64,000 nucleotides of DNA from Candidatus Bathyarchaeia archaeon (GCA_050010755.1 JBEKKK010000001.1:1312001-1376000), one strand, 5' to 3'; shown: positions 293 through 64,000, counted from the first letter of the stretch. Notes: generated from the sequence alone by a model not told the origin. Program-made: numbers and translations.

Positions 293-535
293 ATTAAGCC
301 AAGTGCTCTAATCTGAGATTGGTTTTCCAGTTTCTTTATTCTTTTTTAGCGCGCGCCGATGTTGATGGGAAAGATGGTGCGGACTGATTTTCTGTAATAT
401 AATATGAGGAAGAGCAGAGGAGCAACACCGCTATTTCTTAGTCTCATTTTGGAACTAAAAGTCTTGATGGCACAATAGATCATGGCCAAATGGTGGCTCG
501 AGCCTCACAAACATTGCGCGCTAGCGCGGTAGTAG

Positions 536-667
536 GAATTTGAAGAAGACGACAAATATTGCACTGCTACAGTTGGCTACATTGAAGATGCTGGAAAACT
601 GCTAGAAGCGGGATTTGAATACGTTTGCGACCATGGAAGTATTCTGCTATTCAGAAAAAGGAAGTGA
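536..667 (+). pseudogene. Startless C-terminal fragment resembling archaeal tyrosine integrase tails
   Basis: EFEEDDKYCTATVGYIEDAGKLLEAGFEYVCDHGSILLFRKRK*, preceded by in-frame TAG; the GFEYV...FRKRK tail is recalled from TACK integrases. Confidence 0.6.
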
Positions 668-795
668 AATAAAGCCTTACCCCAAACGCACGCTCTGGGT
701 TCTGGTCCATCGTCGGGTTATTAGTCTTCGTGGTGCCGGTGGGTGATGATTTGATTTCTTGCGGTATTGTTTCTTGAGGTTCTGTGGAGTCTGCG

Positions 796-1467
796 TCAGA
801 TGGTTTTCTCTGAAATTTCGTCTGATGGTTTCAGATAGGAAGATGGTTTGGAGCCATATTGGCAAAGGCTGGATAGTCTTCGCTGTAGCTCTTGGATACG
901 TTCTTTCATAGTCATGACAGGCATTTTGACTCCGAGTGCCTCCCAAGTGTGGGAAGCGTCACCTAGATTTCCATTGACAAGTTTGGTCAAACAACTGATA
1001 GCGGCTTCCTCATTTCCTGTTAGAGATATTGCTCTGATATCGGCAGCTATTTCTTGCTCTTTAGCGATGGCAGGCAAAGGGAGAGGGATGTTGAATAGAT
1101 AGAAAAACGTTTTTGCCCCATTTAGAATGGCGTGAGTATCGCTTTTGCAGTTTCTTATGAGTGCATCGATGAATCCATCACTGGCACGAGGTACAACATG
1201 ATTAAGATAGATGTGGGAAGTTTCATGTGCCAATATGAACTTTTGTTCATCGTAGGTTAGAGTTTTGTTCAAATAATCCTTGTTTACGGACACGTTTCCG
1301 AAGGCTACGTTGACTTTCTTATTCACGACAGGAATCGTGTCGTTAATATATAGTCCAATAGCCTTTGCTATGTCGTCCCGACAATTAGTGACAATAATAA
1401 CTCGTAGGTCAACATTCAAAGACTCTAAAAACTGATTGACTTCAATTTGCATTTCTTGTATCTGCAT
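796..1467 (-). CDS. M48-like zinc metallopeptidase
   Basis: HExxH (AHETSH) plus downstream QEIAAD motif. Confidence 0.75.
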   Translation of the reverse strand: MQIQEMQIEVNQFLESLNVDLRVIIVTNCRDDIAKAIGLYINDTIPVVNKKVNVAFGNVSVNKDYLNKTLTYDEQKFILAHETSHIYLNHVVPRASDGFIDALIRNCKSDTHAILNGAKTFFYLFNIPLPLPAIAKEQEIAADIRAISLTGNEEAAISCLTKLVNGNLGDASHTWEALGVKMPVMTMKERIQELQRRLSSLCQYGSKPSSYLKPSDEISEKTI

Positions 1468-1977
1468 TGAGACCTCTGGTAGTTACATTGTAAACTTGAT
1501 AAACCTTCTGATGGATCAGCTTCTAGCTCATTATCGCCCGCGCTTGACTTCACCAAAAACCTTGGATTCAAGGAAGACAATGTCACAAGACTAGGTCTAA
1601 AACTAAAATGGTAGCGCGCGCTTCTCTTTTCGGCATTAGCTAGAAGCGCGCCCATTAATCGCCTATAGCAGCATAAAGAGGGTTCGTCCTTGGGTAGCGA
1701 GCTTTAACTCAACGGTTTCTCATAGGACTTAGCTGGTGAAAGTCGAAATGATCATGGCGTCTATGATGACATCACGTCAGTATGAAGGGATTTAAGTTTG
1801 GTCCTTTTTTCCCAGGATGATTTGACATTAAGTTGATTCTGAGGCGCCACAACACTATCTTCCAAAGTAGGCTTACAATGAGCTTGTAGAGCAACTGAAA
1901 GAAGAGAAAAAACTCGGCGAAGGAATAAAGAGAAATTTGGAGAGTATTGGATGTAGCGTCTGAGGAAGAGAGCGCGC

Positions 1978-2328
1978 GTGTTTAACTTTGCGTCAGATAG
2001 CTTTTGCTCTCAACTTTCGTCTGATGGAAGCACAAAACTCTTATCATACCAACAGCTTCACGGGGGGGGTTGCTGGAAGCGATTAATCACGGATAACGAA
2101 TCTTTCTTGTGCCCAAAATGCAATAAAAAGACGTTTTCTGTTGGAAACGCAGATTCTATATGGCAAGAAGGAATATCGAATCCAGAATTGATAGATTTGA
2201 TAAAGAACCTAATGGCTGAGGGAAAAATGAAGGAATATCGCTTCTGGCGATGCAAACATTGCAACATCTACTATCAGACTGATCTGAATGTGAAATTTCT
2301 GAAGCGATTTCCGTTACGAGAACGGTAG
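1978..2328 (+). CDS. Hypothetical Zn-ribbon protein; start uncertain
   Basis: CPKC and CKHC pairs. Confidence 0.45.
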   Translation: MFNFASDSFCSQLSSDGSTKLLSYQQLHGGGCWKRLITDNESFLCPKCNKKTFSVGNADSIWQEGISNPELIDLIKNLMAEGKMKEYRFWRCKHCNIYYQTDLNVKFLKRFPLRER

Positions 2329-4623: not shown

Positions 4624-4739
4624 TTCCGATAATAGGTTCTTCGGGGCTTATAGCGTATTCGCACCGCTTATCCAAAACGATGAATCGGTGCCGAGGGCAA
4701 GCACGCGCTTTCCTTTTCTTCTACGACGTCGTCAGAAGT

Positions 4740-12213: not shown

Positions 12214-12273
12214 TCTTAAAAGCTGCGTTCAAAGCTTAAAAGCTTCGCTTCTCAAACATAGCCGGAGAATTGC

Positions 12274-12774
12274 ATGAAGATTTTGGTCGTATATGACACG
12301 GGTTCTATCTCGCGAGGGGCTGGAGCTGCATCAGGAAACACGGCAAAAGTTGCCGGGACGATAAGTGAAGTTCTCAAAGAAAAGGGGTTTGACGTTGACT
12401 GTGTTTATGTCAAGGATGTTGACCCAGCAAGTGCGAGGAATTATGATTGTCTATTAGCCGGGTCGCCCACGCAGTGGCACAGGGCAACTGGGCCTATCAT
12501 GCAATTTCTTGGCAGATTGGCCAAAGCCGAGTTCACAGGAAAACTTGCCGCGGCATTTGACACGCAATTGCAGATTCCATTGAGCGGAAACGCGGGAAGA
12601 GGGATAGAGAAGAAGCTCCGAAAACTTGGTTTCAAGATAGTTGCGCCACCGTTGGTCACCTACGTCCAAGGCAAGAAGAACGTCGAAGGCAAGAATGAAA
12701 TCCAACTGAAAGAGGGAGAACTGGAGAAAGCTAAGAGCTGGGCAGAAGAAGTTGCCAAGGTTCTTCCCAAATAG
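12274..12774 (+). CDS. Flavodoxin-like protein
   Basis: KILVVYDT..GNTAKVA, GSPT, AAAFDT. Confidence 0.85.
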   Translation: MKILVVYDTGSISRGAGAASGNTAKVAGTISEVLKEKGFDVDCVYVKDVDPASARNYDCLLAGSPTQWHRATGPIMQFLGRLAKAEFTGKLAAAFDTQLQIPLSGNAGRGIEKKLRKLGFKIVAPPLVTYVQGKKNVEGKNEIQLKEGELEKAKSWAEEVAKVLPK

Positions 12775-13241
12775 AGCTTTAGGTTTGTCTCGCAAATAGC
12801 GTGCGCATATCCAAGATCTGAAGAGCTCAAACTTGCTTATCAGAAAGTGGTTTTCACGTAGCGCGCGCAATTCCTGGTGCCCCTCATCGGAATGCTGCTG
12901 TTCCTTTATTACGCACGGGCATGTTAAGACTGGCCTCCAAAACTCTGCACTTCTTCGACAAATGCAAGCGCGCTAAAGAGCTGGACTAAAAAACTTGGAA
13001 ATTACGACAAGAGGGCCACCGCCACTAACCGATATCTCCATGTTGAATGGGCGATAAGGAATCTTTTCGGCGAGCGTTCTCTCTGGGAACTTCTCGTCGA
13101 GGGAAGGGCAGACAGAGATGGAGTGTGTCTCGCGCGCACATGATGAACTAGCTCGACAAATCAAAACAGCAGGTTTGAAATTCGGTGCCGGGCAGTGTTG
13201 CGAAAAAAGCTTATTTTAGCAAAAGAGGGCGTAGTTGGGTT

Positions 13242-13420
13242 TGGTGGGGCCGGCCGGATTTGAACCGACGACCTACGGGTTTCTTCTCGGTATAACTGCT
13301 CCCGAATTTCTTCATTCCCTTTCGGGTCGGATTGTAATTGGGTAAACACATGGGCTACCTTGCGGTTTCTCATGGGTTGATTCTGGAGCCCGTCGTCATA
13401 CCTGCCTAGACTACGACCCC
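13242..13420 (-). tRNA. trnW: tRNA-Trp(CCA) with ~102-nt intron at 37/38 (about 13281-13382); CCA end encoded
   Basis: GGGGTCG/CGGCCCC acceptor stem, ACGGG-CTCCAG...A-CCCGT anticodon arm, GTTCAAATC T-loop. Confidence 0.95.
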
Positions 13421-13554: not shown

Positions 13555-13680
13555 GGGGTTTGCCGGTCATAGGGCGTGGGTCCCACCTGATCCCATACCG
13601 AACTCAGAAGTTAAACCACGTTCCGTTTCCGGTTATAGTGTGGTCTTCGGCCATGTGAACCCGGGAAAGCTGGTAGCCCC
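13555..13680 (+). rRNA. rrf: 5S rRNA (stand-alone)
   Basis: CACCTGATCCCATACCGAACTCAGAAGTTAA signature; terminal GGGG/CCCC helix. Confidence 0.95.
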
Positions 13681-36964: not shown

Positions 36965-36976
36965 AAAATAAACCCC

Positions 36977-38134: not shown

Positions 38135-38148
38135 ACTAAAAGGGAGCG

Positions 38149-41354: not shown

Positions 41355-41522
41355 ACTCGACAATCCTTGGAATCCAATCCTTCCTTTCTCCCCACGCACC
41401 ATCTCCTTTTGCTGAAAAACTAATTATGGATTACTAGCGCGCGCCACCCAACAAACGAAAAACATTAAGCATACTCTCGCCAAAGAGGAATTAACAATAA
41501 CGACATCTGGTAGGTTACCAAA

Positions 41523-42254: not shown

Positions 42255-42477
42255 CGCGCGCTCAAGTCACTTCGCTCCTTTCGCCGAAACTAAACCGTGC
42301 ACTATCCAAGAAATAGACGGAATCAGACTATGCAGAAAACGCAAATGAACTCAAACCTCCTCTTTCTCTAATTACCAAAACAGAGCGTCAGTTAGTCTCG
42401 TTGCCATCTGGTGGCAATCAGAAGGTTTTAAGAACTAGTTCCAAGGATGCTATAAGTGAGTTCTAGGAGACAATAGC

Positions 42478-42882
42478 ATGGAAAAAGAACTGCTCTTCGA
42501 AGCCAAAGAGAACGCCACCTCATTTAACATCAAGGAATTCAGCCCAGAAGGCGCGAAGATCGACATCACCCTTACGGGAAAAATCAACGGAAAGGTGAAA
42601 GGGACAATCATAACCACACACACTGTCCTCATGAAGCCTGACGGCACATCGAAAATCGATCACAGATCAGTCATCTTCAGCAACGGCGAGCCAATCTTCG
42701 TAATGGGAACTGGCATGGGGAAAATCGTGAACCCCGCTCCTGTGCGGGACGTTGAGGAAGACCTGACATTCCAGACACCATCTCAAAAACTGGCATATCT
42801 CAATACGACTAAGGGCTGGTCAAAGGGTCCCTTCAACCCCGAAACGGGCGAATACAACTTCAAGGTCTACGCCGTCAAGTAA
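42478..42882 (+). CDS. Hypothetical beta-rich protein
   Basis: AGGAG SD; clean 134-aa ORF. Confidence 0.7.
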   Translation: MEKELLFEAKENATSFNIKEFSPEGAKIDITLTGKINGKVKGTIITTHTVLMKPDGTSKIDHRSVIFSNGEPIFVMGTGMGKIVNPAPVRDVEEDLTFQTPSQKLAYLNTTKGWSKGPFNPETGEYNFKVYAVK

Positions 42883-43143
42883 CGCGCAACACAACTTTTC
42901 AAAAAACGCAAATAACCCTCCTTTTTCTATGACCAACAGAACCAACACACTTCATCGCGCGCGCTAATAGCATTTTAAACAAGAATCAATTTGGCTCGTG
43001 AGCCTTCGGCTCACTCGCCCGTTCCAGACGATACGCCAAAAATGCCGATACGCTCAAAAACTGCTTGCACAAGTCTAAGCGAGGCGCGCGCTAGTTACCC
43101 TAATGTTTATCCTTTTGACAGATCATTAGTAGAAGTGAATAAT

Positions 43144-43692
43144 ATGGAAAAGAAAGCTGTACTTATAACAACCTTGTGCGCTATGATTGTAGTTGTCATC
43201 TTTTTCCAGTTCATCCTGTTCAACACTTCGCTACCAAAAGACTACACGACATATTACAGCGAGTTCAACAAGACTCCCACGCTTGCATACAACTACTCCT
43301 TGTCTCCTCCAGTTTCCGTATACCAAGCGTTGTTGATAGCTCTAAATAGCCGATACTGGAACCGAGAATCCCTCGAAAATTTCAGCGTCTACATCGAGCT
43401 TGACTACTGGGCATACTTTACGAACCTTTCCCCTCCGAACGGAGTGTTGGAATTGGGTGGCGCAACTTACAGGTCGACTGGCAAACCCATAAGCGGAACG
43501 GCTATAATAAATACGGTGACACAACCGCCCGCGGATTGGTTACCTCAACAAATCGACAACATCACTTACCGATACGTCTGGACAATCAACGTCCAATATG
43601 TGATCCATCCCAATGATAAGATTCCTATTGTGCCTAGCTTGCCTTTTCAGTTTCAAGTTGACGCCGCAACCGCAGAATTAATTGAGCCATAA
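43144..43692 (+). CDS. Membrane-anchored exported protein (PepSY-like tail)
   Basis: N-terminal TM after ATG 43144; C-terminal YVWTI...VDAATAELI. Confidence 0.65.
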   Translation: MEKKAVLITTLCAMIVVVIFFQFILFNTSLPKDYTTYYSEFNKTPTLAYNYSLSPPVSVYQALLIALNSRYWNRESLENFSVYIELDYWAYFTNLSPPNGVLELGGATYRSTGKPISGTAIINTVTQPPADWLPQQIDNITYRYVWTINVQYVIHPNDKIPIVPSLPFQFQVDAATAELIEP

Positions 43693-43960
43693 ACACGTTA
43701 AGCGTGCACGAAACGAAAAATCAAGAAAACGCCCAAGTCCTCGGCGACATAAGCCTTTCCCCTTCGCTCCGCTCAGGGTGCGCCTCCTTCGCAACTTTTT
43801 ACTGATGCAAAATATCCCACAAGGTCGCGCGCGCTACAAAAAAAGGCGAAATGCCAATCGAACGCCAAAGGAACAGCAACAATAACGCCACAAACAACCC
43901 GCTATACTCTCGCTAACAGGAACGAATTAACTAACACACGCTACAACAACAGAACACACA

Positions 43961-44034
43961 ACAGAACAAACAACGACAGAACAAACAACGACAGAACAAA
44001 CAACGACAGAACAAACAACGACAGAACAAACAAC
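43961..44034 (+). repeat. Tandem repeat (ACAGAACAAACAACG) x ~5
   Basis: Four perfect 15-mers plus a 14-nt fifth copy; non-coding. Confidence 0.95.
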
Positions 44035-44233
44035 AAACAACAGTAAACAACAGAACGCTATAAACACCCGCCGTTTTAACGCTCAGTAAAGTAACGCGGA
44101 AATCCAACAGAGCAACAAGCCGCCCGCACAGCGCGCGCTACTGACAGCTCAAGCAAGCCATCAACATCAACAAACCAAGCAAAGCTAGAAGCATTAGATG
44201 CTTCGCAAACTAATTTAGGAACAACCATGCGCG

Positions 44234-45031
44234 CTATTTCTTCGAATTGTGTATTAGATAATTGACAACAAAACCAAGTGCCATGAATGTAAACCCAACA
44301 GCATCTACCAATATACCTATCGTTTGGTAAGGATATACTCGGCGCGGAATCGATAAAACATCGGCGTGACTATATTGCATCTCGAAATAGGATGCCGCAA
44401 CCAAGCCAATCGCCAAAAGAAATATCCCCAAAATCAACAATACGTTGCTTCTCGCTAGCGCCCGCGCGCTGGTTGCCTCATTAACTAAGAAGGCACACAG
44501 AAACATTGCTATTGCAGGGTAAACAAGGTAGTAGCCTAGTTGATATCCTGCGAAAAATATATTGCCCGCCTGTATGAGGGCGCTCACGCACGTCATCAGA
44601 ACGACAACTAGTAGGCTAAGAAGAACTGGTGCAAGCAGTAATGTTTTTCTTTTGAATTTGATTGAAACCAAGCCTAGGACTAACGTGAGAAGTTGAGCTA
44701 TAAACATCATTGGTATAAACACCGACGCTGAATCAAAAGTAGATTCAACGTAATTGCTCGCCCAGTAATTATAGAACCATACCGTCTGCGCTAGCGTGCG
44801 CGAGCCAGAACTATAGAAAAAGAATTGGGTGGCCCTAGTCATGTACGACGAGTAATAGTTTGACCAGTTTTGACCAGACACAAAGCCATCAGACACCTGG
44901 ACACCATACCATTGAAGATAGAAGAACGGCAAAATGAAAGAAAATAGAAAAAGGAGGCATCCCACAACTGTGAATGTCTTTCTAAGGGTACCGCCAGTCC
45001 AATGTCCAACTGTTTTCTCAAGATAACTCAA
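44234..45031 (-). CDS. Multi-pass hypothetical membrane protein
   Basis: About 6 TM segments. Confidence 0.7.
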   Translation of the reverse strand: MSYLEKTVGHWTGGTLRKTFTVVGCLLFLFSFILPFFYLQWYGVQVSDGFVSGQNWSNYYSSYMTRATQFFFYSSGSRTLAQTVWFYNYWASNYVESTFDSASVFIPMMFIAQLLTLVLGLVSIKFKRKTLLLAPVLLSLLVVVLMTCVSALIQAGNIFFAGYQLGYYLVYPAIAMFLCAFLVNEATSARALARSNVLLILGIFLLAIGLVAASYFEMQYSHADVLSIPRRVYPYQTIGILVDAVGFTFMALGFVVNYLIHNSKK

Positions 45032-45283
45032 GTTAATCTAAAAGAAATATTACTAGAGCACCTTAAAAGGGCTATTGTTAAGAACAGCATTGCCAAAATC
45101 ATGTCATGCGCGCGCTCTTCGCATTCTTTTATCTTCTTTTCACTTATCCCCAAACCCACCAGATGGAATGATTGGGCGTATATTCATAAGCCGTTACAAG
45201 CGCACGCTCCCCGCAGTCCTAAAAAGTTGCTCAGTCGGGAAAGGCATATTGTCGCCTCGTCAAAGACGAATTAGGAATGTGGG

Positions 45284-45526
45284 TTGAATTACATGACAAA
45301 CCAAACAAACGAAACCCAAAAAAGAACATGTAAAGAAATAGAACACGGGAGACTGAGGACAGAAATAGAAATTCCCAAACTCCCAGAAAGGGCAAAAACT
45401 ATGAATGAAGAAACCAAACCCGAAACCAAGGATCAACCACAAACCAAAAACCAACAAGAAACACCAAAACCAGAATTACTTGTACTAAAGACGGGTTACG
45501 GCCAACACGCCAGCCTTTTTCGCTAA
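45284..45526 (+). CDS. Small hypothetical ORF running through attR
   Basis: A/C-rich codon style like the integrase. Confidence 0.35.
   Translation: MNYMTNQTNETQKRTCKEIEHGRLRTEIEIPKLPERAKTMNEETKPETKDQPQTKNQQETPKPELLVLKTGYGQHASLFR
45492..45515 (+). repeat. attR core (duplicated rnpB 3' end) followed by TTTTT
   Basis: Identical to 36940-36963. Confidence 0.92.
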
Positions 45527-45761
45527 CCCGCCTCATTTTTACTTCCTCTTCGCGCGCGCTAATCTTCCCATTCTTCGATAATATTTACCAAACGGTTTCA
45601 CCTTGGACTATGTTGGCGCAGGAGTTTAAGGGAATTCTGGCACTGATAAAGCACAGTGTGCTTTAGAAGGCTGTACAAATATTGCAAGTTCGACCGCGCG
45701 CGTTTCAGAAATACTATTATCTGGGTTTGATCTGTCCTTTTCCAACTGGGAGATATGTGCT

Positions 45762-46598: not shown

Positions 46599-46700
46599 CC
46601 CAGCATTTGTACTAGTCCCATCCAACATTCGTCCGACTCTTCTTATAAAGGCGCGCGCTTGTGTGGTGACAATTAAGGAAACGTATTTAGAGAATAGGGG

Positions 46701-47807
46701 GTGAAAAAGGTGGAAAGAAAAATCTTGGCAATTTTGAGCATTGCAGTTGCAATCTTCGCGGTATTTGCAGTGGCGAGTGTAGCAAGTGCAGGACTTAAAA
46801 ATGTTGGAGCCATCTACACCATCGATAATGCCGCAGCAGGAAACAACGTCCTATACTACAGCAGAGCAGCAGACGGATCAATCACATATGTTAGTTCTTT
46901 CTCGACTAATGGGTTGGGAACAGGAACGAAACTTGCAAGCCAAGGCGCAGTGGTCCTTACAGAAGATGGGCGCTTCTTGCTTGTAGTTGACGCTGGAAGC
47001 AACGAAATCTCAGTTTTCAAGGTGCAAAGCAACGGATTGACTTACTCGAGTAAGGCGGGTTCCAATGGGACTATGCCGATAAGCTTAACCGTCTACGAGA
47101 ACTGGGTGTATGTGCTGGATGCTGGCGGATCTGGAAACATAGCAGGATTCACGCTGAGCAAATCTGGCGTATTGACCTACATACCCGGCTCGAATCAGCC
47201 TCTAAGCGGTGCATCTACACCTTCGCCTGAGCAGATAGGGTTCAGCCCTGACGGAAACGTGTTAGTCGTAACAGAAAAAGGCACTAACACCATCGATACG
47301 TACATGGTCGGCACTAATGGAGTAGCCAGCGCCCCGACAACTCATGCCTCCAATGCTTTTGGACCATACGGATTTGCCTTCACTGATGATGACAAACTGG
47401 TTCTTAGCGAAGCAGCAAACAATACATTGTCTTCATACATCATTTCTGACCAAGGTGACTTGAGAACTATCAGCGGTGCTATGCCAACTTTTGGCAATGC
47501 ACCCTGCTGGGTCACAATAAATGATAAGGGCAGCTTTGCCTACACGACCAACGCGCATGGGGGAACTATATCGACGTTCTCAATCTCGTGGAATGGGGGC
47601 ATAACCTTGCTAAGTTCTGTAGCTGCGACAATCAATGTTCCGGCACTTGACATGGCTTTCAGCCATCATAGTCAGTTCCTTTACGTGCTCAATGGCAACA
47701 GCCCTGCAGGCATCACAGGATTCAAAGTGTACCCAGATGGAAGTTTGTCGCAGGTAACATCAGTGAGCGGAATCGCTGGATCTGCTGCAGGATTGGCGGC
47801 ATCTTAA
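46701..47807 (+). CDS. Exported lactonase-family beta-propeller protein
   Basis: Signal peptide; repeated blades DGRFLLVVDAGSNEISVF, FSPDG, APCW. Confidence 0.85.
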   Translation: MKKVERKILAILSIAVAIFAVFAVASVASAGLKNVGAIYTIDNAAAGNNVLYYSRAADGSITYVSSFSTNGLGTGTKLASQGAVVLTEDGRFLLVVDAGSNEISVFKVQSNGLTYSSKAGSNGTMPISLTVYENWVYVLDAGGSGNIAGFTLSKSGVLTYIPGSNQPLSGASTPSPEQIGFSPDGNVLVVTEKGTNTIDTYMVGTNGVASAPTTHASNAFGPYGFAFTDDDKLVLSEAANNTLSSYIISDQGDLRTISGAMPTFGNAPCWVTINDKGSFAYTTNAHGGTISTFSISWNGGITLLSSVAATINVPALDMAFSHHSQFLYVLNGNSPAGITGFKVYPDGSLSQVTSVSGIAGSAAGLAAS

Positions 47808-48119
47808 GAGCTGCAAAAACAAAAAATCTAACTCTCTCCTCTTTTTTAGCATATGGGAAAGATGTAAGACATAGTGCGTCAATGTTTTGTTGATATAGCT
47901 GTTCATTATTCTCTCAAGCTTCTGGATTCTGACGCGCTCTCGAGTGTTGCTAAAGGAGATGCAGAACGTTTTCTTTGAAAGCTTCAAGCGTTGGAGTTGT
48001 TGGTGCACATTGGAAGATTATGTAAGAGATTCCAGTTTCGTCTTTCTCGAGGCGCGCGCGTTTTGCATACGTTGACTCACCAGAAAGCTTATGCATCAAT
48101 CCCGTGATTTTGATACTAA

Positions 48120-48599
48120 GTGATTTGTTTGGCGAAAGAAGAACTGAAACCACTTGAAGTTGTGCCATATGTCGAGCTGAATAAATATCTAGGTAAATGG
48201 TATGAGATTGCACATCTTCCCTTTAGGTTTGAAAATGGTTGTACTGACATAACAGCGACTTACAGCTTATCTAAAGATGGCAACGTTTCCGTACTCAATG
48301 AATGCCTGAGAGATGGCAAGCTGAAACAGGCAAATGGGAAGGCAAAAGTGGTTGACAAAAATTCTGGAGCAAAACTTAAGGTAACATTCTTCTGGCCGTT
48401 CTCTGCTGATTATTGGATTATAGATCTAGGAAATGACTACGACTACGCCGTTGTAGGGACACCAAACCGCAAGTATCTATGGATATTGAGCAGAACCCCC
48501 CAAATGGATGACAACCTATTTTCCCAATTAGTTGAATCTGTAAAGTCAAAAGGTTTCGATATTAACAAACTGATCAAAACCAGCCATAAAGGAAACTGA
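48120..48599 (+). CDS. Bacterial-type lipocalin (Blc-like)
   Basis: KYLGKWYEIA, KLKVTFFWPF..DYW, YLWILSRTP. Confidence 0.92.
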   Translation: MICLAKEELKPLEVVPYVELNKYLGKWYEIAHLPFRFENGCTDITATYSLSKDGNVSVLNECLRDGKLKQANGKAKVVDKNSGAKLKVTFFWPFSADYWIIDLGNDYDYAVVGTPNRKYLWILSRTPQMDDNLFSQLVESVKSKGFDINKLIKTSHKGN

Positions 48600-48633
48600 T
48601 TTCATAATCGTAGCGCGCGCTTAAAGTAATTCT

Positions 48634-49089
48634 TTACTCGCTCTGCCTGCGATGAAGCGAGGTCAAGATGAGCATAAGCCCCGTGCAGCAACACAGGAAA
48701 CCTTTCAAGATCCAAGTTGAATAAAACAGGTTGTCCAAGGCAGCGAATTTAGCCACTTCTGGAATAATAAACCTAGTTGCGTCCTCGCTCCGATAAGCTA
48801 GGGCAAGAAAGATAGTAAACAATCCGTATAGGATGACAATGAAAGAGAGACGGAAAATCACGTTTGCTTCTTTATCTGTTCCTTCTCGCTTTAGATAGCC
48901 ATTGAGATAAAAACCTATTCCAATTGCTAAGAGCGCCATCATTGATACGTTCCAAGCTATACCGGGTTGAGGGGACTGAAGATACAGATCGAGTTGCCAA
49001 CCCGCCAACGGCAAAACCACTGTTACAGCACAGAGGGAAAAGACAGGCGTTAGCAGAATCAGATTTGAACCGGCAAGAAACTGTCGCAA
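48634..49089 (-). CDS. Hypothetical membrane protein
   Basis: 4 TM. Confidence 0.6.
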   Translation of the reverse strand: MRQFLAGSNLILLTPVFSLCAVTVVLPLAGWQLDLYLQSPQPGIAWNVSMMALLAIGIGFYLNGYLKREGTDKEANVIFRLSFIVILYGLFTIFLALAYRSEDATRFIIPEVAKFAALDNLFYSTWILKGFLCCCTGLMLILTSLHRRQSE

Positions 49090-49267
49090 CTCTTTGCCCC
49101 ATCAATCTTCTGCCGCCTGCCGCTTTAAAGGTTTGTCGCGCGCGCTAAAATCGAAAAAACCGAAATAAATAACGCGCCCATCAGTGCGCGCTAGGCAAGT
49201 TTTCAGAGATAGAGCGCAGCGTTCAAGACGTTAGAAAGGACATTCAAGAACTGAAGAAAACAATCTC

Positions 49268-49786
49268 TTAAGTATGCGCAGTTTGATTTGTGTCATTTTT
49301 CTTACACTCCTTGCAACGCATAGGTTTTATGGGTTTGAAAGGAACTTCAAATAGCTTTCCACAATTACTGCACACAGTGTGATACATTGTCTTAGGAGCT
49401 GTTGAAAAATAGGTTTTGACTCTTTCTGTCGAGAAGTATGCGAAGGAGAAGAAGGGGTACAGGACAAGGTACGCTATTATCGGAATGAAGATGGTAGACG
49501 GGCCGACCCAGTAGACTAGCCAGATGTCGAAGAGGATGAGCAGAACCCAAGAGGCCATCGACAGAAAATAGCCTGCGCGCATTCCTAGAAATATGAGAAC
49601 AGTATCCGCAATGAACAATGTGCCGAACGCGGCGGTCAGCCCTATGAGCGTAAGCACTGGCGTTGAGGGTTCTCCTACCTGTGCCCATACAGAAAGAAAG
49701 AAAATTGCGATTAACCATGCTCCAATAGCGGTTAACACGGTGAACAGGCACACCAGAGTGACCCCAACTGGCTGGACTCTCTCCAC
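49268..49786 (-). CDS. Membrane protein with C-terminal CxxC Zn ribbon
   Basis: 4 TM ending VKTYF, then CSNCGKLFEVPFKP...CKEC. Confidence 0.7.
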   Translation of the reverse strand: MERVQPVGVTLVCLFTVLTAIGAWLIAIFFLSVWAQVGEPSTPVLTLIGLTAAFGTLFIADTVLIFLGMRAGYFLSMASWVLLILFDIWLVYWVGPSTIFIPIIAYLVLYPFFSFAYFSTERVKTYFSTAPKTMYHTVCSNCGKLFEVPFKPIKPMRCKECKKNDTNQTAHT

Positions 49787-50210
49787 AGCGTCACCAAAAG
49801 TTACATTTGTTTCCGAAGATAAAAACTTTAAGCGACAGCCAGAAAAAAAGTTTTTCAGAACAAGGCTGGACGGAGACTGTGTTTTGCGAATGAAGCTGCC
49901 AGCAGGCTCTGTTCAGACTCGAAACTCACTCATAACAACATGTAAACTCACTGTACAGTTGCCCATCTGCAGGACGATTTCAGGATTAACCCGTTTAACG
50001 ATGCGGGAGAACGCAGTAACCGCTTCGGTCCAGCCCGCGCTCACAACTGCCAAAACTCTCCAGACTCATCAACAAGCGCACAGGAGCCGAGAAGATGATT
50101 GCCGTCAACACAGCAGACCACGTTAAACACGCCTTGCCACTTCACATCCCATTTTCGAAAAAATTCATTCAACACGCCAATTATTTAACTCACCCGCGCG
50201 CACTGCGATT

Positions 50211-50786
50211 CTACGTTGGCAGAGGGGGAAAAGGTTGGGGTGGTATTATTGCCTCAACGGGCTTTGGCACGCGCTCTCTAGTTAGTGCGGCAAACATCAT
50301 AATCGCGGCAACCAAGGCCAGCCAAAAACCGAAAGATAGGTACGACGAGTAATCCATGGATATTCCAAGGTAGCCGTATGAACCACTGGAGAACAAACCT
50401 GCTCCTGTTGGGATCCCCGTAACCAAAGACCCATTTGAAATCTGGCTTTGCAATCCCGCAGCGAATATAATAATCGAAAACAAAGCAAGTATCCCGCCAA
50501 GTGAAAGCACAATCCTTCTTCCATTAGCAATGACACTACCTGCCAAACCCAGCAAGCCGCCTAACACCACAAATGCCAAGGCAATCGAACAATACCAAGG
50601 AAGATTCGTTGAAGCGGATAATGATATACCTGTTATGGTCACTCTCGTTTGGTATAGGTACAGAGCAACCTGATCAGAGAGGTTCATTCCCATGCCTGAA
50701 CTCGAAATGCCCATAGCCCACCACGGTAACACCAAGCTAATGAAAGCCAATATGCCTCCGATAAAACCTGAATAGTTAATTCTCAA
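50211..50786 (-). CDS. Hypothetical membrane protein
   Basis: SLVLPWW...LSFGFWLALVAA. Confidence 0.75.
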   Translation of the reverse strand: MRINYSGFIGGILAFISLVLPWWAMGISSSGMGMNLSDQVALYLYQTRVTITGISLSASTNLPWYCSIALAFVVLGGLLGLAGSVIANGRRIVLSLGGILALFSIIIFAAGLQSQISNGSLVTGIPTGAGLFSSGSYGYLGISMDYSSYLSFGFWLALVAAIMMFAALTRERVPKPVEAIIPPQPFPPLPT

Positions 50787-50881
50787 ATTGCGCCCCCCAC
50801 TCTACAATGTCGCGCGCGCTGTCCTCGATTTTAATCGAATTCATTTTCATATAAAACTTTCTAAGGCGCGCGCTACGAAGC

Positions 50882-51349
50882 TCAACTGGCGCTCTTAATC
50901 GGTCTCTTCACGGCAACATAGAGTTGTAGAACAGACGCTATCGAGGTGATAATTGCGCCAGTTAGAGTGACGTAAGCACCGTAGAGAATCGAGTATATAT
51001 TAAAAGGCCATTCGAGTCCCAGCCTTGGCTCGATTATGCGCAGGCTTGGAAGCGCAATCCAAGCAGCTGTGATAGAAAGAGTGGCCAAGCTTCCACATAA
51101 AACTAGTAATCCTGTGTACCATCTAGGTCTTAGGATGAAAACTGCTGAAAGAAATAGTGTCAAGATACAAGTCAGCAGGATATAGGCTGCCATTTTAATG
51201 TATGGGATACCTGGCCTGGAAACAGGAACATAGTTATACAATAGAATCGTTCCTACATATCCCCATGGCATATAGCAACCTGCTAGGCTGACAGAAACTC
51301 CAAAAAGAACTATAACCGTGATTAACATCCGACGCCTCAATTCAAACAA
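50882..51349 (-). CDS. Hypothetical membrane protein
   Basis: MPWG...YGAYVTL; 4 TM. Confidence 0.65.
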   Translation of the reverse strand: MFELRRRMLITVIVLFGVSVSLAGCYMPWGYVGTILLYNYVPVSRPGIPYIKMAAYILLTCILTLFLSAVFILRPRWYTGLLVLCGSLATLSITAAWIALPSLRIIEPRLGLEWPFNIYSILYGAYVTLTGAIITSIASVLQLYVAVKRPIKSAS

Positions 51350-51396
51350 TGGACATCAGTCCCATCTTGGAAACGAAGTCTGATGAGCATATAGCT

Positions 51397-51885
51397 TTAC
51401 CGCGCTGTCTTCATTCTTAAGCCAAAATATTCATGAATATTTCCTGACAAGAGAAACCATAGTGAACAGCCAATTGCGTAAGCATATGGCATTAAAACCG
51501 CAATTAGGCTTTCGATTTGCCAGTTTGCCAGATTTTGAAGGCCTGCATACTCGCCAGTACTGTAACTTTTCCAAACAGAAAATGTAAGTCGAGAAAACAA
51601 GAAACAAACGAAAGTCCAAAAGAGCATTGACGCGTACCAAACGTATTTCGACTTGCTGACTAGCATAGAAATAGAGAGGCAGAAAGCATAGAGCGACATC
51701 AGAATTGCGGGTAAAAGACTTAACAAGACATGTTCCGTGTAGATGGCACCCTCCCCAGAAGCGGCAAGTCCTTCTCCCCCGACAAAGGCGACCAAGAAAC
51801 TGATGAGAGTGAGAAGACCCATGGCAAATGAAGCAAACAACGTCAATATCGCGACTATCTTTACACTATTTGGTTTTTTACTCAA
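51397..51885 (-). CDS. Hypothetical 4-TM protein, paralogue of 56293-56763
   Basis: PNSVxIVAILTL, SKYxWYAS, PYxYAxGCS shared. Confidence 0.75.
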   Translation of the reverse strand: MSKKPNSVKIVAILTLFASFAMGLLTLISFLVAFVGGEGLAASGEGAIYTEHVLLSLLPAILMSLYAFCLSISMLVSKSKYVWYASMLFWTFVCFLFSRLTFSVWKSYSTGEYAGLQNLANWQIESLIAVLMPYAYAIGCSLWFLLSGNIHEYFGLRMKTAR

Positions 51886-51941
51886 CTTGCGTCACCAGCT
51901 CGCGACACTTTGGTTCATATAAACAGATTGAGCAGGAAGAA

Positions 51942-51985
51942 GTTAACTCCTGTGTTATTGACCATTAAGTCAATGATAATTGACC
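51942..51985. repeat. 44-bp TTGAC/GTCAA dyad element, copy 1
   Basis: Similar to 56823-56866 and 58903-58946. Confidence 0.8.
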
Positions 51986-52024
51986 AACACGCCAACCAAC
52001 ACGCCAAAGGCGCGCTATCTCTTT

Positions 52025-53020
52025 TCATATATGCATCAGGAATGTTAGTAATACGTAGGCAACGAAAAAGACCAGACCGAAAGTCAACCCATACCAGGGT
52101 ATCTTCTTTTTTGAGATGAAATAGAGCATAAGCGAAGAGACCACTGTCGTGGCAAGAACGCTAAGATAAGCGTGAACGTCTAGGACCCATGCTGTAAGAA
52201 AAAGTCCAATCGCAATATACAATGTTGAGTACAGGACTTTTTCGCCGACCAGCGATCCTATGCTTAAGGTGTCCTTGCCTCTGAAGCCCCAGATTAAAGC
52301 GCTCGCGGTCTCAGGAATCGCGGTCGCTGCTGGGATTACGATAATAGACAGCCCGATCAAGCTAGCTCCAAGCGAAATAGATATCTGGTTAACTATTGAA
52401 ACGAGTTGGCTAGCTCCAACGTAAAGCACGACAACTGAAACAGCTAATTGAACGAAGCTTCCGATCTCCCTGTTGGGAATTATTCTGCAGAAATAGGGAC
52501 TCTCAGCCTCCGAGGCAACCTCGAAAGTTCTATGCCTATACATCAGACCAACATAAACAAGGTATGCTGATAGGAACAACAGTCCAAATAAGATCCGCAC
52601 TTGAAATGAATGAAAAACCGATGGAACTAGCGCTATCGGCAAGAGAATCGTGACGAAAATGAACGGTATTGCCAGAGTTTGGCTAACTTCAAGGTAGCTG
52701 TGCTTCCTTCTTTTCAGAAAGAAACCGAATAAAGCGACTACTCCGACCAACCCGTAAGAAACACTCGACGCTATGAACGGCTCACCGAATATTGTTCCAA
52801 CCGCCACCGCCGCACCGCCGGCTCCCCTAAGACTGAAAATGGCTATGAGCAATACCACAAGCTCGGGAAGTGACGTGAAAAGCGGCGACAGAATAGCACC
52901 CACAAAAGAATGCCCTATGTTAAACCTGTAGCCAAGGAACTCGATCGAATTCACATACAGCAATGCGGATACGAAAACAACTATAATACTAATCAGCAGA
53001 AATACTACGAGCTCAAGCAT
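52025..53020 (-). CDS. Na+/Ca2+ exchanger (CaCA) family antiporter
   Basis: Alpha repeats TSLPE and TAIPE; about 10 TM. Confidence 0.88.
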   Translation of the reverse strand: MLELVVFLLISIIVVFVSALLYVNSIEFLGYRFNIGHSFVGAILSPLFTSLPELVVLLIAIFSLRGAGGAAVAVGTIFGEPFIASSVSYGLVGVVALFGFFLKRRKHSYLEVSQTLAIPFIFVTILLPIALVPSVFHSFQVRILFGLLFLSAYLVYVGLMYRHRTFEVASEAESPYFCRIIPNREIGSFVQLAVSVVVLYVGASQLVSIVNQISISLGASLIGLSIIVIPAATAIPETASALIWGFRGKDTLSIGSLVGEKVLYSTLYIAIGLFLTAWVLDVHAYLSVLATTVVSSLMLYFISKKKIPWYGLTFGLVFFVAYVLLTFLMHI

Positions 53021-53297
53021 TTTTATGCCATCAAAAAAACTATTGAGACCCGTGGATCTATTTATGTGATTACTTGTTTCAGCGCGTGCAGAAACAGTGG
53101 ATGCGTTTCCTAGCCGACCAAACTGAAGATGAGTTGACCCTTCACAGCATCAACTCCTAATTCCAGTCTCAGAACGTCCAAGTTCACTATTAGATATTAG
53201 GCGCGCGCGTGAATTATGAGAACGCGTGTTGCTGCGGCACTACAGTCACACAGGCTTAAATATCGTGCACATTATTCTTGTTATCAGGTGATTTGGT

Positions 53298-54325: not shown

Positions 54326-54385
54326 ATCAATGTCGCGCTCGCATCACGCTCGCGCTCCAACCAATGAAAACACAAAAGCGCGCGC
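54326..54385 (+). repeat. 60-bp intergenic repeat, copy 1
   Basis: 56/60 identical to 56095-56154. Confidence 0.9.
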
Positions 54386-54840
54386 TTATTCTATAGGATT
54401 TTTCAAAGACGCGTGCTACTACACGCGACCTTGTTCCCAACGTCCATGCGCACGAAACCACGCTTCATGATGCGCAAAATCACCAAAAGTCTTCAAATGC
54501 GAAGCCAAATCTGCCTCAGTTGCAAACACACAGGGGCACCAACGACACTTAAAACACTTCTCAACTTCACTCATGTAAGCCACAGCGGATCTAACACATA
54601 AACACTGATAAATCTAATCCTCACTACTAGGGCGCGCACGCTAATAGCAACGTAAATAGACGCGCTATCTAGACGCAGTATCAGAATGCATTAAGCGCGC
54701 GCGATGAGCATCATTTCTACTTCATTGCTTCTTTCTTCTTTTTTCTTCTTTCATTCTATCTCTCTTTGTTTTGGTTACCATGGCGTCACGCCCCATTTAC
54801 CAGAATGGCAAGCGCCCTACAAAACGCTTATGTCTCCAGA

Positions 54841-55125: not shown

Positions 55126-55476
55126 CTTTCTATCGCGCGCGCTAAGCAATCGTTTATATAAAGTGCAGTCGCGTTATAACAACGACACAAAAACTAAGGA
55201 GAAAAGCAGAAAAATGCCGAGCACACAAAAGAAGAAAAAACCACTCCCCAAAAAATACACGAAAAACAAGAAATAACTAAGGAACCATGATGGAAGCAGA
55301 CGCACAAAATGCCAAGTCCTTAATCACCTTCCGCGCGCGCATGAGCAAGCCGAAGTCTTGAAGCCCCAAGAAAGAGCACGGCAAGACTCTTTTTCTCTTT
55401 TTACGCGCGCGAGACATCGCAACACAACGAAAATTAGAGTGCGGTTATTTAGACTCACTGTAGACAACAAGTAAGG

Positions 55477-56031: not shown

Positions 56032-56094
56032 ACACTCATCAACAAAGCGCGCGCGCTCTCTTCTTTCAAACCTCCAATCGAATTGATTCAACCC

Positions 56095-56890: not shown

Positions 56891-56989
56891 CTAGTTAAGC
56901 ACCTGCCCTTAGGGGATGTCAGCGGCGACGGTATAGTTAACATGAGAGACATCGCTCTCGTGGCCAGAAACTTGGGAAACCACGAATAA
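56891..56989 (+). pseudogene. Orphan dockerin-type repeat fragment
   Basis: LGDVSGDGIVNMRDIALVARNLG; no convincing start. Confidence 0.65.
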
Positions 56990-60187: not shown

Positions 60188-60299
60188 ACTAACCATACTG
60201 CATGCACTAAGAAATGTCTTGCATAAACCTGGGCGACCAGCGCGCGCTAACAAACCATTATATTTGTTGAACCGTAACTGTAGTAATGAGGTTTACTGA

Positions 60300-61324: not shown

Positions 61325-62026
61325 TCATACGGTTTCAGAAAGTATCCTCTTTAGAATCGTCAATCCATGTCTCAGCTTTAGCTTTTTCTCGCCCAATCTT
61401 TTTCTATATCGGATTGGAACTTCAACGATGTCGTAACCCTTCTTCTCGACGTAATGGTTCAGCTCGGCTTCAACATCGAAGCCTTTTGATCTCGGCTTCC
61501 AATCTTTCATGATATCCCACCTCACAAGGCGCAGACCAGTTAGCGGATCTTCCAGGTGGACCCCGTTCAACAGGTTGTGAGCGAAGGCCAACAATCTGTT
61601 TCCAACATAAAACATGTTATGCATTGATTCGAAATCGAGACTTCCAGCGAACCTGTTCCCACAGACCATGCCCGTCTGCGGATTCTCCTCAAGTATTCTA
61701 ACCATCTTGAGCAAATGTTCCGCTGGGTAAGTATAGTCCGCGTCGATGAACACCACATATCTAGCATCAATTAGCTGCGCATGAGCTATTGCGGTTGCGA
61801 TCGCATCGCCTTTACCTGAACCTTTCTGTGTTAAAACTACAGCTCCCATGCTCTCGGCGATCTTCGTCGTACAATCCGTACTCCGTCCATCGACAACCAA
61901 GCAAAAGGGCTTATCCAAACAAGTCTTGATCTCGGCAAGCGTCGGGCCCACTCCTCTCTCTTCGTTCAGAGCGGCGACTATCACCAATATTGACGGTAAA
62001 CCACGTGTTTTCTGAATCATGAACAA
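61325..62026 (-). CDS. GT2 glycosyltransferase (dolichol-P-sugar synthase-like)
   Basis: ALNEE, VVDGRSTD, GKG, DADYTYP, GFDVEAE, YRKRLGEKK. Confidence 0.92.
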   Translation of the reverse strand: MFMIQKTRGLPSILVIVAALNEERGVGPTLAEIKTCLDKPFCLVVDGRSTDCTTKIAESMGAVVLTQKGSGKGDAIATAIAHAQLIDARYVVFIDADYTYPAEHLLKMVRILEENPQTGMVCGNRFAGSLDFESMHNMFYVGNRLLAFAHNLLNGVHLEDPLTGLRLVRWDIMKDWKPRSKGFDVEAELNHYVEKKGYDIVEVPIRYRKRLGEKKLKLRHGLTILKRILSETV

Positions 62027-62280
62027 GACATCTCAGGCGCGCGAGGTGCCTCATCATCATCGCGCTTTGCTGTGTTCTTATTGAAGCTACCGCAGCGCTT
62101 GCCCTTAGATTCTAGATCAGGGCACTGCGATCTTCAATCATTCTCCGCTATTTGCTCTCCATCCCTTCTGATTTAAAGCAGCAAGAACCATCAGGTTAGA
62201 ACCTGCTCGTTCTTAACACTTTAAATAGGCATGAGGGCAGCAAAGATTTTTGCACGTTCCGATGTTAGTGCCGACGCCTG

Positions 62281-62592
62281 CTAGAATCGTGATATCAACG
62301 ATCCAGCCTCTTTCTTGCGGCGGATCTTTCCCATGTTCACGAAGTTTGCCAGAAAATCCCTCCCCTGATCTGTCGTCGTGTAAACAATCCTCATCTCGTT
62401 CACGTTTCCTCCCCCGTACACGACGCTCAGGGAGATGTACCGCATGCCGAGAAGCATGCTCACATACTTGCTCAGCCGCGTGAAATTCAAATTCGCTCTG
62501 TAGACGACGCTAGTCTTCGCTGCCCCGTCCAGACAAGTTTCTAGGATATCGCAGATGATTTCGACCTGACTTCTTCGATGGGCAACCAACAT
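62281..62592 (-). CDS. Archaeal winged-helix regulator
   Basis: RRSQVEIICDIL...KTSVVYRANLNF. Confidence 0.85.
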   Translation of the reverse strand: MLVAHRRSQVEIICDILETCLDGAAKTSVVYRANLNFTRLSKYVSMLLGMRYISLSVVYGGGNVNEMRIVYTTTDQGRDFLANFVNMGKIRRKKEAGSLISRF

Positions 62593-62706
62593 TAACACCA
62601 TTAAATCTGCCAAAAGTACATTAAACAAGAAGTGAAGCAAGAGCTATTAACAGTTTCGAAATGTTTAAATAAAAAAGAAACAGGCCCCCAGCAACGCAAT
62701 TGATTG

Positions 62707-63390
62707 CTAGATCCATTTGATGATGGGTTCATTCTTCTTCGGCCGCATCGCGCGAGCCTCAGGGACGTCCTTTGGATAGCCGAGCACGATGGGTCCGTAT
62801 ACTCGTTCACTATCCTTCAACTCGAGGGCTTGCACGACACCCGCATCGCCTGTGACCATTGAACCGAACCCCACATAGCAGCTTCCAAGACCAAGAGAGC
62901 AAGCGGCAAGCATGATGTTCTCGCAGGCTAACGCACAACTTAGAGCGTGTTCAGCCGGGCCAATCACAAAGAGAATGACAGGTGCAGAATAGTAAACCAT
63001 GTCTTTAGGTTCGTCCATTACCCCGCGGAGCCTCGTCACCTTCTCGTAATAGTCGGGGTGAGTCTCTTTGATTTCTTCATACATTCCATTCCATATAGGG
63101 AGCGTGGCCCGAACCAGTTTCTGTATAAACTCCGGGTCCTCGACAACGACAAACCGCCAAGGCTGAAAAAGAGCCTCCACACTTCCTTTTTCCTCCCTTC
63201 CCTGCGACGGCGCCAGATTGCCAGCCTCGATTATCGCATTAATGATACCCCTCGGAACTGGCTTTGGCATATAGGCCCTAACAGACTGCCTGTTCTTTAT
63301 GACTTCAATTACCGGATTCGTCACTACCTTATTGAGGTCTTCTGGCTCCAACTTTCTGTTCTTTCTTTCATCATCAACCATGTTTCTCAT
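62707..63390 (-). CDS. Nitroreductase family protein
   Basis: RQSVRAY, APS, QPWRFVVV, ENIMLAACSLGLGSC. Confidence 0.92.
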   Translation of the reverse strand: MRNMVDDERKNRKLEPEDLNKVVTNPVIEVIKNRQSVRAYMPKPVPRGIINAIIEAGNLAPSQGREEKGSVEALFQPWRFVVVEDPEFIQKLVRATLPIWNGMYEEIKETHPDYYEKVTRLRGVMDEPKDMVYYSAPVILFVIGPAEHALSCALACENIMLAACSLGLGSCYVGFGSMVTGDAGVVQALELKDSERVYGPIVLGYPKDVPEARAMRPKKNEPIIKWI

Positions 63391-64000
63391 CTCCCAAATC
63401 TCTTCACAGCAGATTCAGATGAACTCTGTTCGAAACAGCCCACGTCGAACCCGAATCCGCACTGATCAGTTCGGTCAACCGACGACGAGTGGCTACCTTC
63501 TTTATTCTGGGAGAACTTGAACTTTGCCTCTGCCACAGAGACAGACATAATATTCTTCTCTTGAGCGACTTGCAAGTATCCAAACTTCACTCATTTCCAC
63601 CTTAAACCACTAGAGCAGTGGTCACGAGAGTTAAGGTGTTCTGTGCAATAGTGACCAGTCTAGCAGTCGGCCTGTCGACCAGCTCGTAGGTAGGGACGCG
63701 TCCGCAAGTCTACATTATTTCACTTTAACCTTGGTCTCTCCCCCCTTCAAGAATGCCGCATTGACAAACAACTTATACGGCTCAAAACTCGCCTTTCTCA
63801 TCGTGGCGCATCATGCTTTCAACCCGCCTAACCCTGAAGAAACATTCGCCATCGACGCTTGAGGATACACTGTGCTCAAGGGTTCGGCTCAGAATACTGA
63901 AGCTGCTCATCAGCTCTCAGAAACTTACCCCAGCCCAGATCGCGGCCAAAGTAGGAGTTAACTATGTTGTGGTGCGCGCGCATCTCGAAGCTCTCGAAAA

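Follow-up and report, generated by a model that had tools for sequence, protein, structure and literature searches.

A short palindrome at the boundaries of small gene modules in a Bathyarchaeia genome, a candidate recombination joint

How accessory genes are gained and reshuffled in uncultured archaea such as the peat lineages is largely unknown, and a 64-kb stretch of DNA from a Candidatus Bathyarchaeia archaeon (the whole stretch, G000:C1:1312001–1376000, is called the window here) raises the question in a concrete form: why does one short palindrome, GCGCGCGC, recur between genes that have little to do with one another? A preliminary description of the window had placed about 27 copies of this motif at the junctions of unrelated gene modules in its accessory zones, and had suggested a possible link to the tyrosine recombinases encoded there. 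In this study, the motif was followed through the genome of origin (G000; 2.19 Mb in eight contigs, 47.7% G+C), through related genomes and through metagenome contigs. Homology between genomes stops at the edges of the motif far more often than at matched control positions, and the motif may be the recombination joint of a cassette-like insertion and excision of small gene modules, a reading to which a probability of roughly 0.55 is assigned. The DNA used for close comparison comprised 1.565 Mb of the sister species G002, with a core identity to G000 of about 83%, together with pieces of G003 and G004.

Enrichment, form and distribution of the motif

In the window, GCGCGCGC gives 29 overlapping matches, which correspond to 27 distinct loci because the pairs 33464/33466 and 56047/56049 are 10-mers, and all of the positions in the preliminary description were recovered. 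Its other counts hold as well. In 100 dinucleotide-preserving shuffles of the window there were on average 0.96 and at most 6 copies, with none reaching 29, and the zoning was given correctly, with two sites in 1–5 kb, two in 5–37 kb and 23 beyond 38 kb. The short copy GCGCGCTA has 23 matches in the window on both strands, against 1.49 expected, and these include all seven that had been listed (516, 12968, 44229, 49186, 52010, 56249 and 56886); the motif is indeed overlapped by the TAG stops of two open reading frames (ORFs), 41523–42254 on the plus strand and 44234–45031 on the minus strand. Assembly artefact, which had been named as a possible objection, does not account for the sites since independent metagenome contigs span them: contigs identical to the window from another peat metagenome (X2) cross most of the sites, contigs from a 2024 run (X6) cross many, and a 493-kb contig from yet another assembly matches 47714–53286 at 100% identity. 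The sites of the window are as follows.

349–356, GCGCGCGC site
1614–1621, GCGCGCGC site
12861–12868, GCGCGCGC site within one of the indel gaps that interrupt the colinear core (12215–13392 is unaligned with G002)
33464–33473, GCGCGCGCGC site close to the right end of 30993–33541, a 2.5-kb insertion specific to G000
38661–38668, GCGCGCGC site
41437–41444, GCGCGCGC site
42254–42261, GCGCGCGC site, its first G being the end of the TAG stop of ORF 41523–42254
42957–42964, GCGCGCGC site
43084–43091, GCGCGCGC site
43827–43834, GCGCGCGC site, conserved within a module common to G003:C14
44131–44138, GCGCGCGC, the left copy beside a 1,069-bp insertion
44229–44236, short copy GCGCGCTA, overlapping the TAG stop of ORF 44234–45031 (minus strand)
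45108–45115, GCGCGCGC site
45552–45559, GCGCGCGC site
46651–46658, GCGCGCGC site
48052–48059, GCGCGCGC site
48613–48620, GCGCGCGC site
49138–49145, GCGCGCGC site
50812–50819, GCGCGCGC site inside the module 50196–50873, degenerate (GCCCGCGC) in G003
50866–50873, GCGCGCGC site, the right boundary of the module 50196–50873
53201–53208, GCGCGCGC site
54378–54385, GCGCGCGC site
54695–54702, GCGCGCGC site
55135–55142, GCGCGCGC site
55333–55340, GCGCGCGC site at which homology to G004:C3 begins exactly, in both genomes
56047–56056, GCGCGCGCGC site
60240–60247, GCGCGCGC site
63974–63981, GCGCGCGC site

The whole of G000 holds 253 overlapping occurrences, or 233 distinct sites, and GCGCGCGC is its top over-represented 8-mer by both z-score and ratio (9.3-fold against an order-1 model). 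On gene calls that were home-made and dicodon-based, and that class 82% of the genome as coding, 190 sites (82%) are fully intergenic, 7 are partly so and 36 are coding; the spacers contain 208 occurrences against 4.0 expected (51-fold), and coding DNA contains 38 against 22.8 (1.7-fold). The flanks are not random either, with T in 56% of cases at +1 and A in 42% at +2, and no clear preference in base composition was seen at the G000 sites beyond 2 nt on either side of the octamer. The symmetric 10-mer AGCGCGCGCT occurs 69 times, each of the three other symmetric flanks only one to three times, and in spacers AGCGCGCGCT is found 57 times against 0.32 expected. The consensus is (T)AGCGCGCGCT(A), and the flank preference together with the excess of AGCGCGCGCT makes the recognised unit look like a palindrome of 10–12 bp. 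The length is sharply fixed at eight, with only 20 10-mers in G000, and so is the phase (253 GCGCGCGC versus 109 CGCGCGCG). Of 921 copies with one mismatch, 561 are intergenic, and transitions make up the most frequent kind of variant. A miniature inverted-repeat transposable element (MITE) or long repeat is ruled out as the carrier of the motif by the flanks, which have no similar counterpart elsewhere in G000 at 183 of the 233 sites.

Two clusters of sites are found in G000, at C1:920–1000 kb (35 sites) and, within the window, at 1340–1380 kb (24 sites), and further sites are spread genome-wide. Of the spacers in these two islands 36 of 74 carry the motif (49%), compared with 118 of 1617 elsewhere (7.3%). 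The earlier picture of an accessory-zone motif therefore stands in so far as the motif is denser in accessory DNA, but not in its restriction to the island of the window, as the motif extends through the genome, through the genus and, patchily, through the class. All five genomes of the genus have 168–646 copies. Among 26 other genomes of the same family and order that were searched, 23 have 0–14 copies and the remaining three have 30 (G013), 53 (G024) and 227 (G018). The last, from another genus of the family, combines its 227 GCGCGCGC with longer (GC)5–6 runs and an equally high count of the control CGCGCGCG, and may present a variant of the same phenomenon. In the class, 301 genomes were searched with AGCGCGCGCT, a genome being called motif-rich at 15 or more copies with a reversed control of at most 5; 21 genomes in six families (f1, f26, f27, f29, f31 and f37) qualified, most of the others had 0–3 copies, and even single genera were mixed. 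In two distant motif-rich genomes, 14 of 21 sites (G115) and 4 of 9 sites (G113) lie outside stop-to-stop ORFs of at least 100 codons, which cover about 90% of the DNA in both, and the same phenomenon probably exists there.

Homology boundaries, insertions and turnover

The relation of the motif to the limits of homology was measured in 600-bp segments centred on the motif sites of all the DNA under comparison, with a junction defined as a homologous block that ends within 3 bp of a motif edge. Of 381 such segments with homology elsewhere, 126 had a junction and in only 25 did a block run through the motif, whereas 600 random spacer positions, 373 of them with homology, gave 49 junctions and 164 spanned positions. 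The block ends accumulate at the outer and inner edges of the octamer, and almost none lie beyond. In a matched test with 186 intergenic sites, 125 had outside homology, 48 as junction only and 4 spanned. The 552 controls were matched to the sites by type of gene end, by distance from it and approximately by spacer length; 362 of them had homology, 28 as junction only and 152 spanned, so that the odds ratio of motif versus controls is 65, for sites that are not fully independent. At 13 sites each flank has a homologous partner of its own, and in no case do the two partners lie next to each other in the partner genome.

The window itself gives the same picture. None of its 27 sites lies inside a block of at least 300 bp conserved with G002, though such blocks cover 33.6 of the 64 kb, and both of the sites in its 'core' fall in the two indel gaps between blocks colinear with G002:C6 (12215–13392 and 30993–33541), the second of which is specific to G000. 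Several island segments common to four species end within 1 bp of GCGCGC. The earlier placement of the motif at junctions of unrelated modules is supported by these observations. A 5S rRNA gene at 13559–13678 adjoins one of the two core gaps.

The clearest single event is an insertion, for which, together with two further loci, the following features are needed.

4701–4708, degenerate copy GCACGCGC at an 'empty' site
44139–45199, inserted DNA that both G003:C14 and a contig of metagenome X9 lack, with ORF 44234–45031 (minus strand) and further copies inside it at 44229 and 45108
45200–45207, GCGCACGC, the right, one-mismatch copy beside the 1,069-bp insertion
50196–50873, minus strand, module of one membrane-protein gene (50211–50786, minus strand) and about 80 nt upstream

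The empty site in G003:C14 reads ...cgcccgcaca GCGCGCGC tccccgcag..., and the filled site in G000 has the same left flank with GCGCGCGC (44131–44138), then 1,069 bp, then GCGCACGC (45200–45207) with the same right flank. A metagenome contig from X9, of depth 172 and with four ambiguous letters, also has the empty form, with 44135 joined to 45205. The empty site thus has one octamer where the filled site has two, one on each side of the insert. Several metagenome contigs diverge directly behind the GCGCGCTA copy at 44229–44236. A further motif-duplicating event is probable at 4701–4708, where G000 has GCACGCGC and G002:C2 has about 1.25 kb between GCGCGCGC and GCGCGC. At the module 50196–50873, identity to G003:C14 is 89%, compared with 78% for the adjacent core, and the similarity ends at GCGCGC(GC) on both sides in both genomes, with unrelated DNA beyond; a metagenome scan with the 50211–50786 protein returned three loci (the same genome, the G003-type copy and a distant homolog) and no new contexts.

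Other repeats and modules were seen beside motif copies. About 95 bp at 44139–44233, between GCGCGCGC and GCGCGCTA, have copies of 82–90% identity beside GCGCGC in G002 (C1, C2 and C12). A MITE-like repeat of about 360 bp at 49843–50204 has some ten further matches in G000 at 71–90% identity; its left end coincides with breaks in metagenome contigs, on its right it borders directly on GCGCGC, and other copies of it border on GCGCGCGC (C1:1071523 and C1:1414265). A repeat of about 70 bp at 56919–56988 has about a dozen further matches across the G000 contigs. Just upstream of the window, a module of about 490 bp (G000:C1:1311219–1311702) with two tiny lysine-rich ORFs ends at GCGCGCGC in G000 and is 92–99% identical among four species, against a core identity of 78–85%.

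The modules are functionally unrelated to one another. By Pfam, those of the window encode two TIR-domain proteins of the CAP12/Pycsar type, an HTH protein, a lactonase-like propeller, a lipocalin, an Na/Ca exchanger, a CMD-family protein, a TRAM-domain protein and others, and those of the second island encode an MvaI/BcnI-family endonuclease and methylase, a P-type ATPase, an OYE-type reductase and a PhzF-like protein. In the second island, at G000:C1:958628–960352 (L122 13628–15352), the MvaI/BcnI-family endonuclease gene adjoins an N4/N6 methyltransferase gene, with a gene for a 611-aa DUF4365 protein as neighbour.

The motif is not conserved in position between the species. Among 384 orthologous spacer pairs of G000 and G002, two have the motif in both genomes, 12 in G000 only and 25 in G002 only, and in 17 of these last 25 the spacer is more than 700 bp longer in G002. 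Where spacers can still be aligned, the motif faces an unrelated stretch of 6–8 nt, which indicates block change and not point changes. The history of the motif looks like continual creation and decay, not like purifying selection on fixed regulatory sites.

The integrase element and candidate enzymes

The window contains a tyrosine recombinase gene at the border between its core and its island, and the association of this gene with the motif was considered together with the following features.

36651–36958, plus strand, archaeal RNase P RNA gene (Rfam)
36932–36963, plus strand, attL-like copy of the RNase P RNA 3′ end
36977–38134, plus strand, tyrosine recombinase with a Phage_integrase domain (start codon uncertain; the listed ORF begins at 36836)
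45484–45518, plus strand, attR-like repeat of the RNase P RNA 3′ end, closing the integrase element on the side away from the integrase gene

Synteny with G002:C6, G004:C3 and G003:C14 stops at the 3′ end of the RNase P RNA, about 27 nt of which are repeated at 45484–45518, and from there the DNA resembles the native downstream flank of the relatives. With its tyrosine integrase and its att sites, a direct repeat of the RNase P RNA 3′ end, 36964–45518 is thus an ordinary integrative element. Copies of the motif are found inside this element as well, and no ortholog of the integrase was found at the equally motif-dense islands at the same locus in G002, G003 and G004. As the integrase has an att site other than the motif, lacks an ortholog in the sister islands and is accompanied by the motif inside its own element, the suggested link between motif and recombinase is not supported. 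Three Phage_integrase matches are present in G000 in all, and the third (C1:1116884) was set aside as a degenerate ORF. The two TIR-domain genes (CAP12/Pycsar type; 39735–40796 and 41523–42254) lie inside the integrase element, one of them with a DnaJ-type zinc-finger region, and are probable defence genes.

Other enzymes were sought in the gene content of G000 and its relatives. For C5 methylases (PF00145), no match over the family cut-off was found in the five genomes of the genus, and one weak match below the cut-off was seen in G002. The N4/N6 methylase family PF01555 was uninformative, being present in 28 of 31 relatives regardless of motif content, and the MvaI/BcnI-family restriction-modification pair of the second island was discounted as being itself a module. 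No family match in G000 was obtained for Y1 transposases (PF01797; searched in a genome of 93% completeness), serine recombinases or TnpB; DDE_Tnp_1 gave one match, and no multi-copy transposase-like or insertion-sequence proteins were found in G000. Ku (PF02735) was rejected, as it was not found in G000 and occurs mostly in motif-poor families.

Since Cas1 inserts arbitrary DNA and duplicates its target, it was an attractive candidate. A stand-alone Cas1 of 342 aa is encoded at G000:C1:658439–659464 (L126 10436–11464, minus strand), with neither a further cas gene nor a CRISPR array within 20 kb and no PolB among the ORFs scanned; intact and fragmentary copies are scattered in G003, G004, G008, G012 and G024, as for a mobile, casposon-like element. 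Cas1 was nevertheless rejected as the agent, because the motif-rich G002 has a fragment only and the motif-poor G008 and G012 have intact copies. None of the families checked (C5 methylase, Y1 transposase, serine recombinase, Cas1 and Ku) tracks the motif.

Alternative readings and comparison with known systems

In the proposed mechanism, a lineage-specific process would insert, excise and reshuffle small self-contained modules, each consisting of a promoter, one to three genes and a short 3′ tail, with GCGCGCGC (consensus (T)AGCGCGCGCT(A)) as the joint. A module would enter at an existing copy of the motif or bring copies at its own ends, so that a filled site would have the motif on both sides and an empty site one copy; recombination between two copies would remove or exchange the intervening DNA, and solo copies would stay in the spacers and then decay by point mutation. 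Modules could sit in either orientation because the site is a palindrome. Breakage and joining would occur within the motif, and we infer a dedicated protein that recognises the palindrome of 10–12 bp, either a restriction-like nuclease acting together with joining or a recombinase that has escaped recognition; alternatively, joining might be driven by microhomology at the one sequence that all spacers have in common. A bolder form of the proposal, in which a dedicated enzyme recognising TAGCGCGCGCTA cuts and rejoins DNA, as an integrase-independent, genome-wide cut-and-paste capture in which the DNA between two copies is a mobile cassette and the system has spread horizontally among at least six families, can be held only tentatively.

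Several observations weigh against the recombination joint. Two systematic scans of the available pairs gave one clean empty/filled case with motif duplication and otherwise tandem repeats inside genes; this scarcity may be explained by the species, which are probably too diverged for spacer flanks to align. Of 69 indels between G000 and G002, 59 lack GCGCGC at both junctions (to a distance of about 25 bp), although the 69 include many changes of repeat number inside genes. At C1:320805, GCGCGCGCGC in G000 stands opposite 991 bp of G002 DNA with no motif at its ends, and GCGCGC stands at the matching point of the partner in only 70 of 299 junction blocks. Furthermore, the gene calls are home-made, the motif sites are not statistically independent, and G002 was compared over 1.57 of about 2.33 Mb. 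These points are compatible with solo copies as footprints and with decay of copies, a fit that does not amount to proof.

Of the other explanations, one takes the motif as punctuation, a palindrome to which a protein binds where an expression unit ends (for example as insulator, silencer nucleation site or 3′-end signal) and which travels with the unit, so that homology ends there only because the motif is the last functional element of the unit and recombination consists of ordinary illegitimate events. The sites do lie nearer to stops than to starts, about one third of the 99 in tandem spacers being within 30 nt of the upstream stop; the prevalence of the symmetric AGCGCGCGCT is as for a dimeric binder; and a few sites are conserved with their flanks (C1:259375, and 43827 of the window in G003). 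This explanation is nevertheless unlikely. Of the 39 orthologous spacer pairs with the motif in at least one member, just two have it in both, there are more decayed than perfect copies, and the block ends lie on the exact edges of a motif that is duplicated around an insertion. In addition, the motif is about equally frequent in tandem (99 of 1011), divergent (38 of 351) and convergent spacers (49 of 329), and the orientation of its TA side is unrelated to gene direction, the next feature being a stop in 52 and a start in 36 of 88 cases. A promoter or BRE-TATA reading is ruled out by this absence of an orientation or distance rule, and a classical oligo-T terminator is argued against by the T5+ runs, which are present in the upstream 40 nt at 9 of the 96 sites lying within 120 nt of a stop. 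The placement agrees with a joint between units, each made up of an upstream region, one or more genes and a short tail.

It is distinctly improbable that the octamer is a by-product like the highly iterated palindrome (HIP), made or kept by a methyltransferase with biased repair or by restriction-modification, with the link to junctions being secondary. The motif is an octamer palindrome and the most over-represented word of its genome, it is patchy across lineages like a mobile enzyme, N4/N6 methyltransferase genes are present, and the HIP1 palindrome of cyanobacteria, GCGATCGC, is linked in parts of PMC4390886 to methylases and to site-specific recombination and excision. Yet a repair bias would act in genes too, where the excess is 1.7-fold; the genus genomes lack a C5 methyltransferase over the cut-off; PF01555 is present with or without the motif; and HIP1, in a section of PMC5861425, is enriched and conserved in coding and non-coding DNA alike, which the motif is not. 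Slightly less credible still is a target-site duplication by a transposase or Cas1-type integrase that prefers GCGCGCGC and makes 8-bp staggered cuts. The 8-bp direct repeat around the 1,069-bp insert, the MITE-like repeat that abuts the motif at several places and the existence of a stand-alone Cas1 are what it would predict, but the inserted modules have no common ends or inverted repeats, Cas1 does not follow the motif, and the searches of G000 for transposases yielded the one DDE_Tnp_1 match and no multi-copy gene. Chance, simple-sequence slippage or assembly artefact can be given almost no credence: although (GC)n is a dinucleotide repeat, none of the shuffles reached the observed count, length and phase are fixed, and independent contigs span the sites.

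Literature searches on GCGCGCGC in archaea, on integrons or gene cassettes in Bathyarchaeia and on archaeal highly iterated palindromes returned no description of the motif, and its likeness to known systems is partial in each case. Integron cassettes, which have been reported in Archaea too, are joined at attC sites of 50–150 bp that are folded and carry a GTTRRRY core. Like them, the islands are arrays of unrelated small modules parted by a short recurrent site that stands on both sides of an inserted module. However, the islands depart from integrons in every structural feature compared. There is no IntI beside the array, as an integron has together with attI and Pc, and the sole local integrase has its att site in the RNase P 3′ end; the motif is 8–12 bp with unique flanks and not an attC-like imperfect inverted repeat with R and L boxes; and the modules, unlike integron cassettes, which mostly lack promoters and point the same way, face both ways, have upstream regions of their own (about 80 nt in 50196–50873) and adjoin sites that occur genome-wide. 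The intergenic mosaic elements of Neisseria (dRS3) and the REP/RAYT elements are repeats of 20–40 bp that often form hairpins. They resemble the motif as short intergenic repeats near the 3′ ends of genes that flank mosaic blocks and act as points of recombination or integration, but the motif has 8–12 bp, its eight bases are unable to form a hairpin, and no Y1 (RAYT) transposase was found in G000. The motif differs from MITEs and insertion sequences in its lack of conserved ends, its unique flanks and the absence of multi-copy transposase-like proteins from G000, and from CRISPR- or casposon-like integration in that Cas1 is not co-distributed with it. Unlike a DNA uptake sequence, an over-represented word that is distributed over core DNA and has uptake machinery to match, it is densest in accessory islands (49% versus 7.3% of spacers) and absent from the conserved blocks of the window. 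The element at 36964–45518 is itself like the integrative elements of the tRNA type, with an integrase and a direct repeat of the 3′ end of a structural RNA gene; such an element explains the position of the island, but not the motif, which is also present genome-wide.

The nearest described thing to the motif is HIP1, as far as it is characterized in the relevant sections of PMC5861425 and PMC4390886: both are G+C-rich octamer palindromes, by far the most over-represented words of their genomes, and lineage-specific, with variants gained and lost. The many-fold genome-wide excess of a HIP is found here, at 9.3-fold for the top word. In coding and non-coding DNA alike, HIP1 is abundant and keeps its positions, and it is tied to GATC and CGATCG methylases (PMC5861425 and PMC4390886), whereas the motif occurs in an archaeal host without a detected C5 methylase, is 82% intergenic and near expectation in coding DNA (1.7-fold, versus 51-fold in spacers), and is not conserved in position (2 of 39 motif-bearing orthologous pairs). 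The patchiness of the motif over 301 genomes makes phylogenetic profiling applicable and the enzyme findable, and the sharpness of the motif would allow module boundaries to be marked by it in metagenomes. A minimal joint of 8–12 bp at the limits of self-contained modules would give genomes a new way of being plastic, intermediate between integrons and iterated palindromes.

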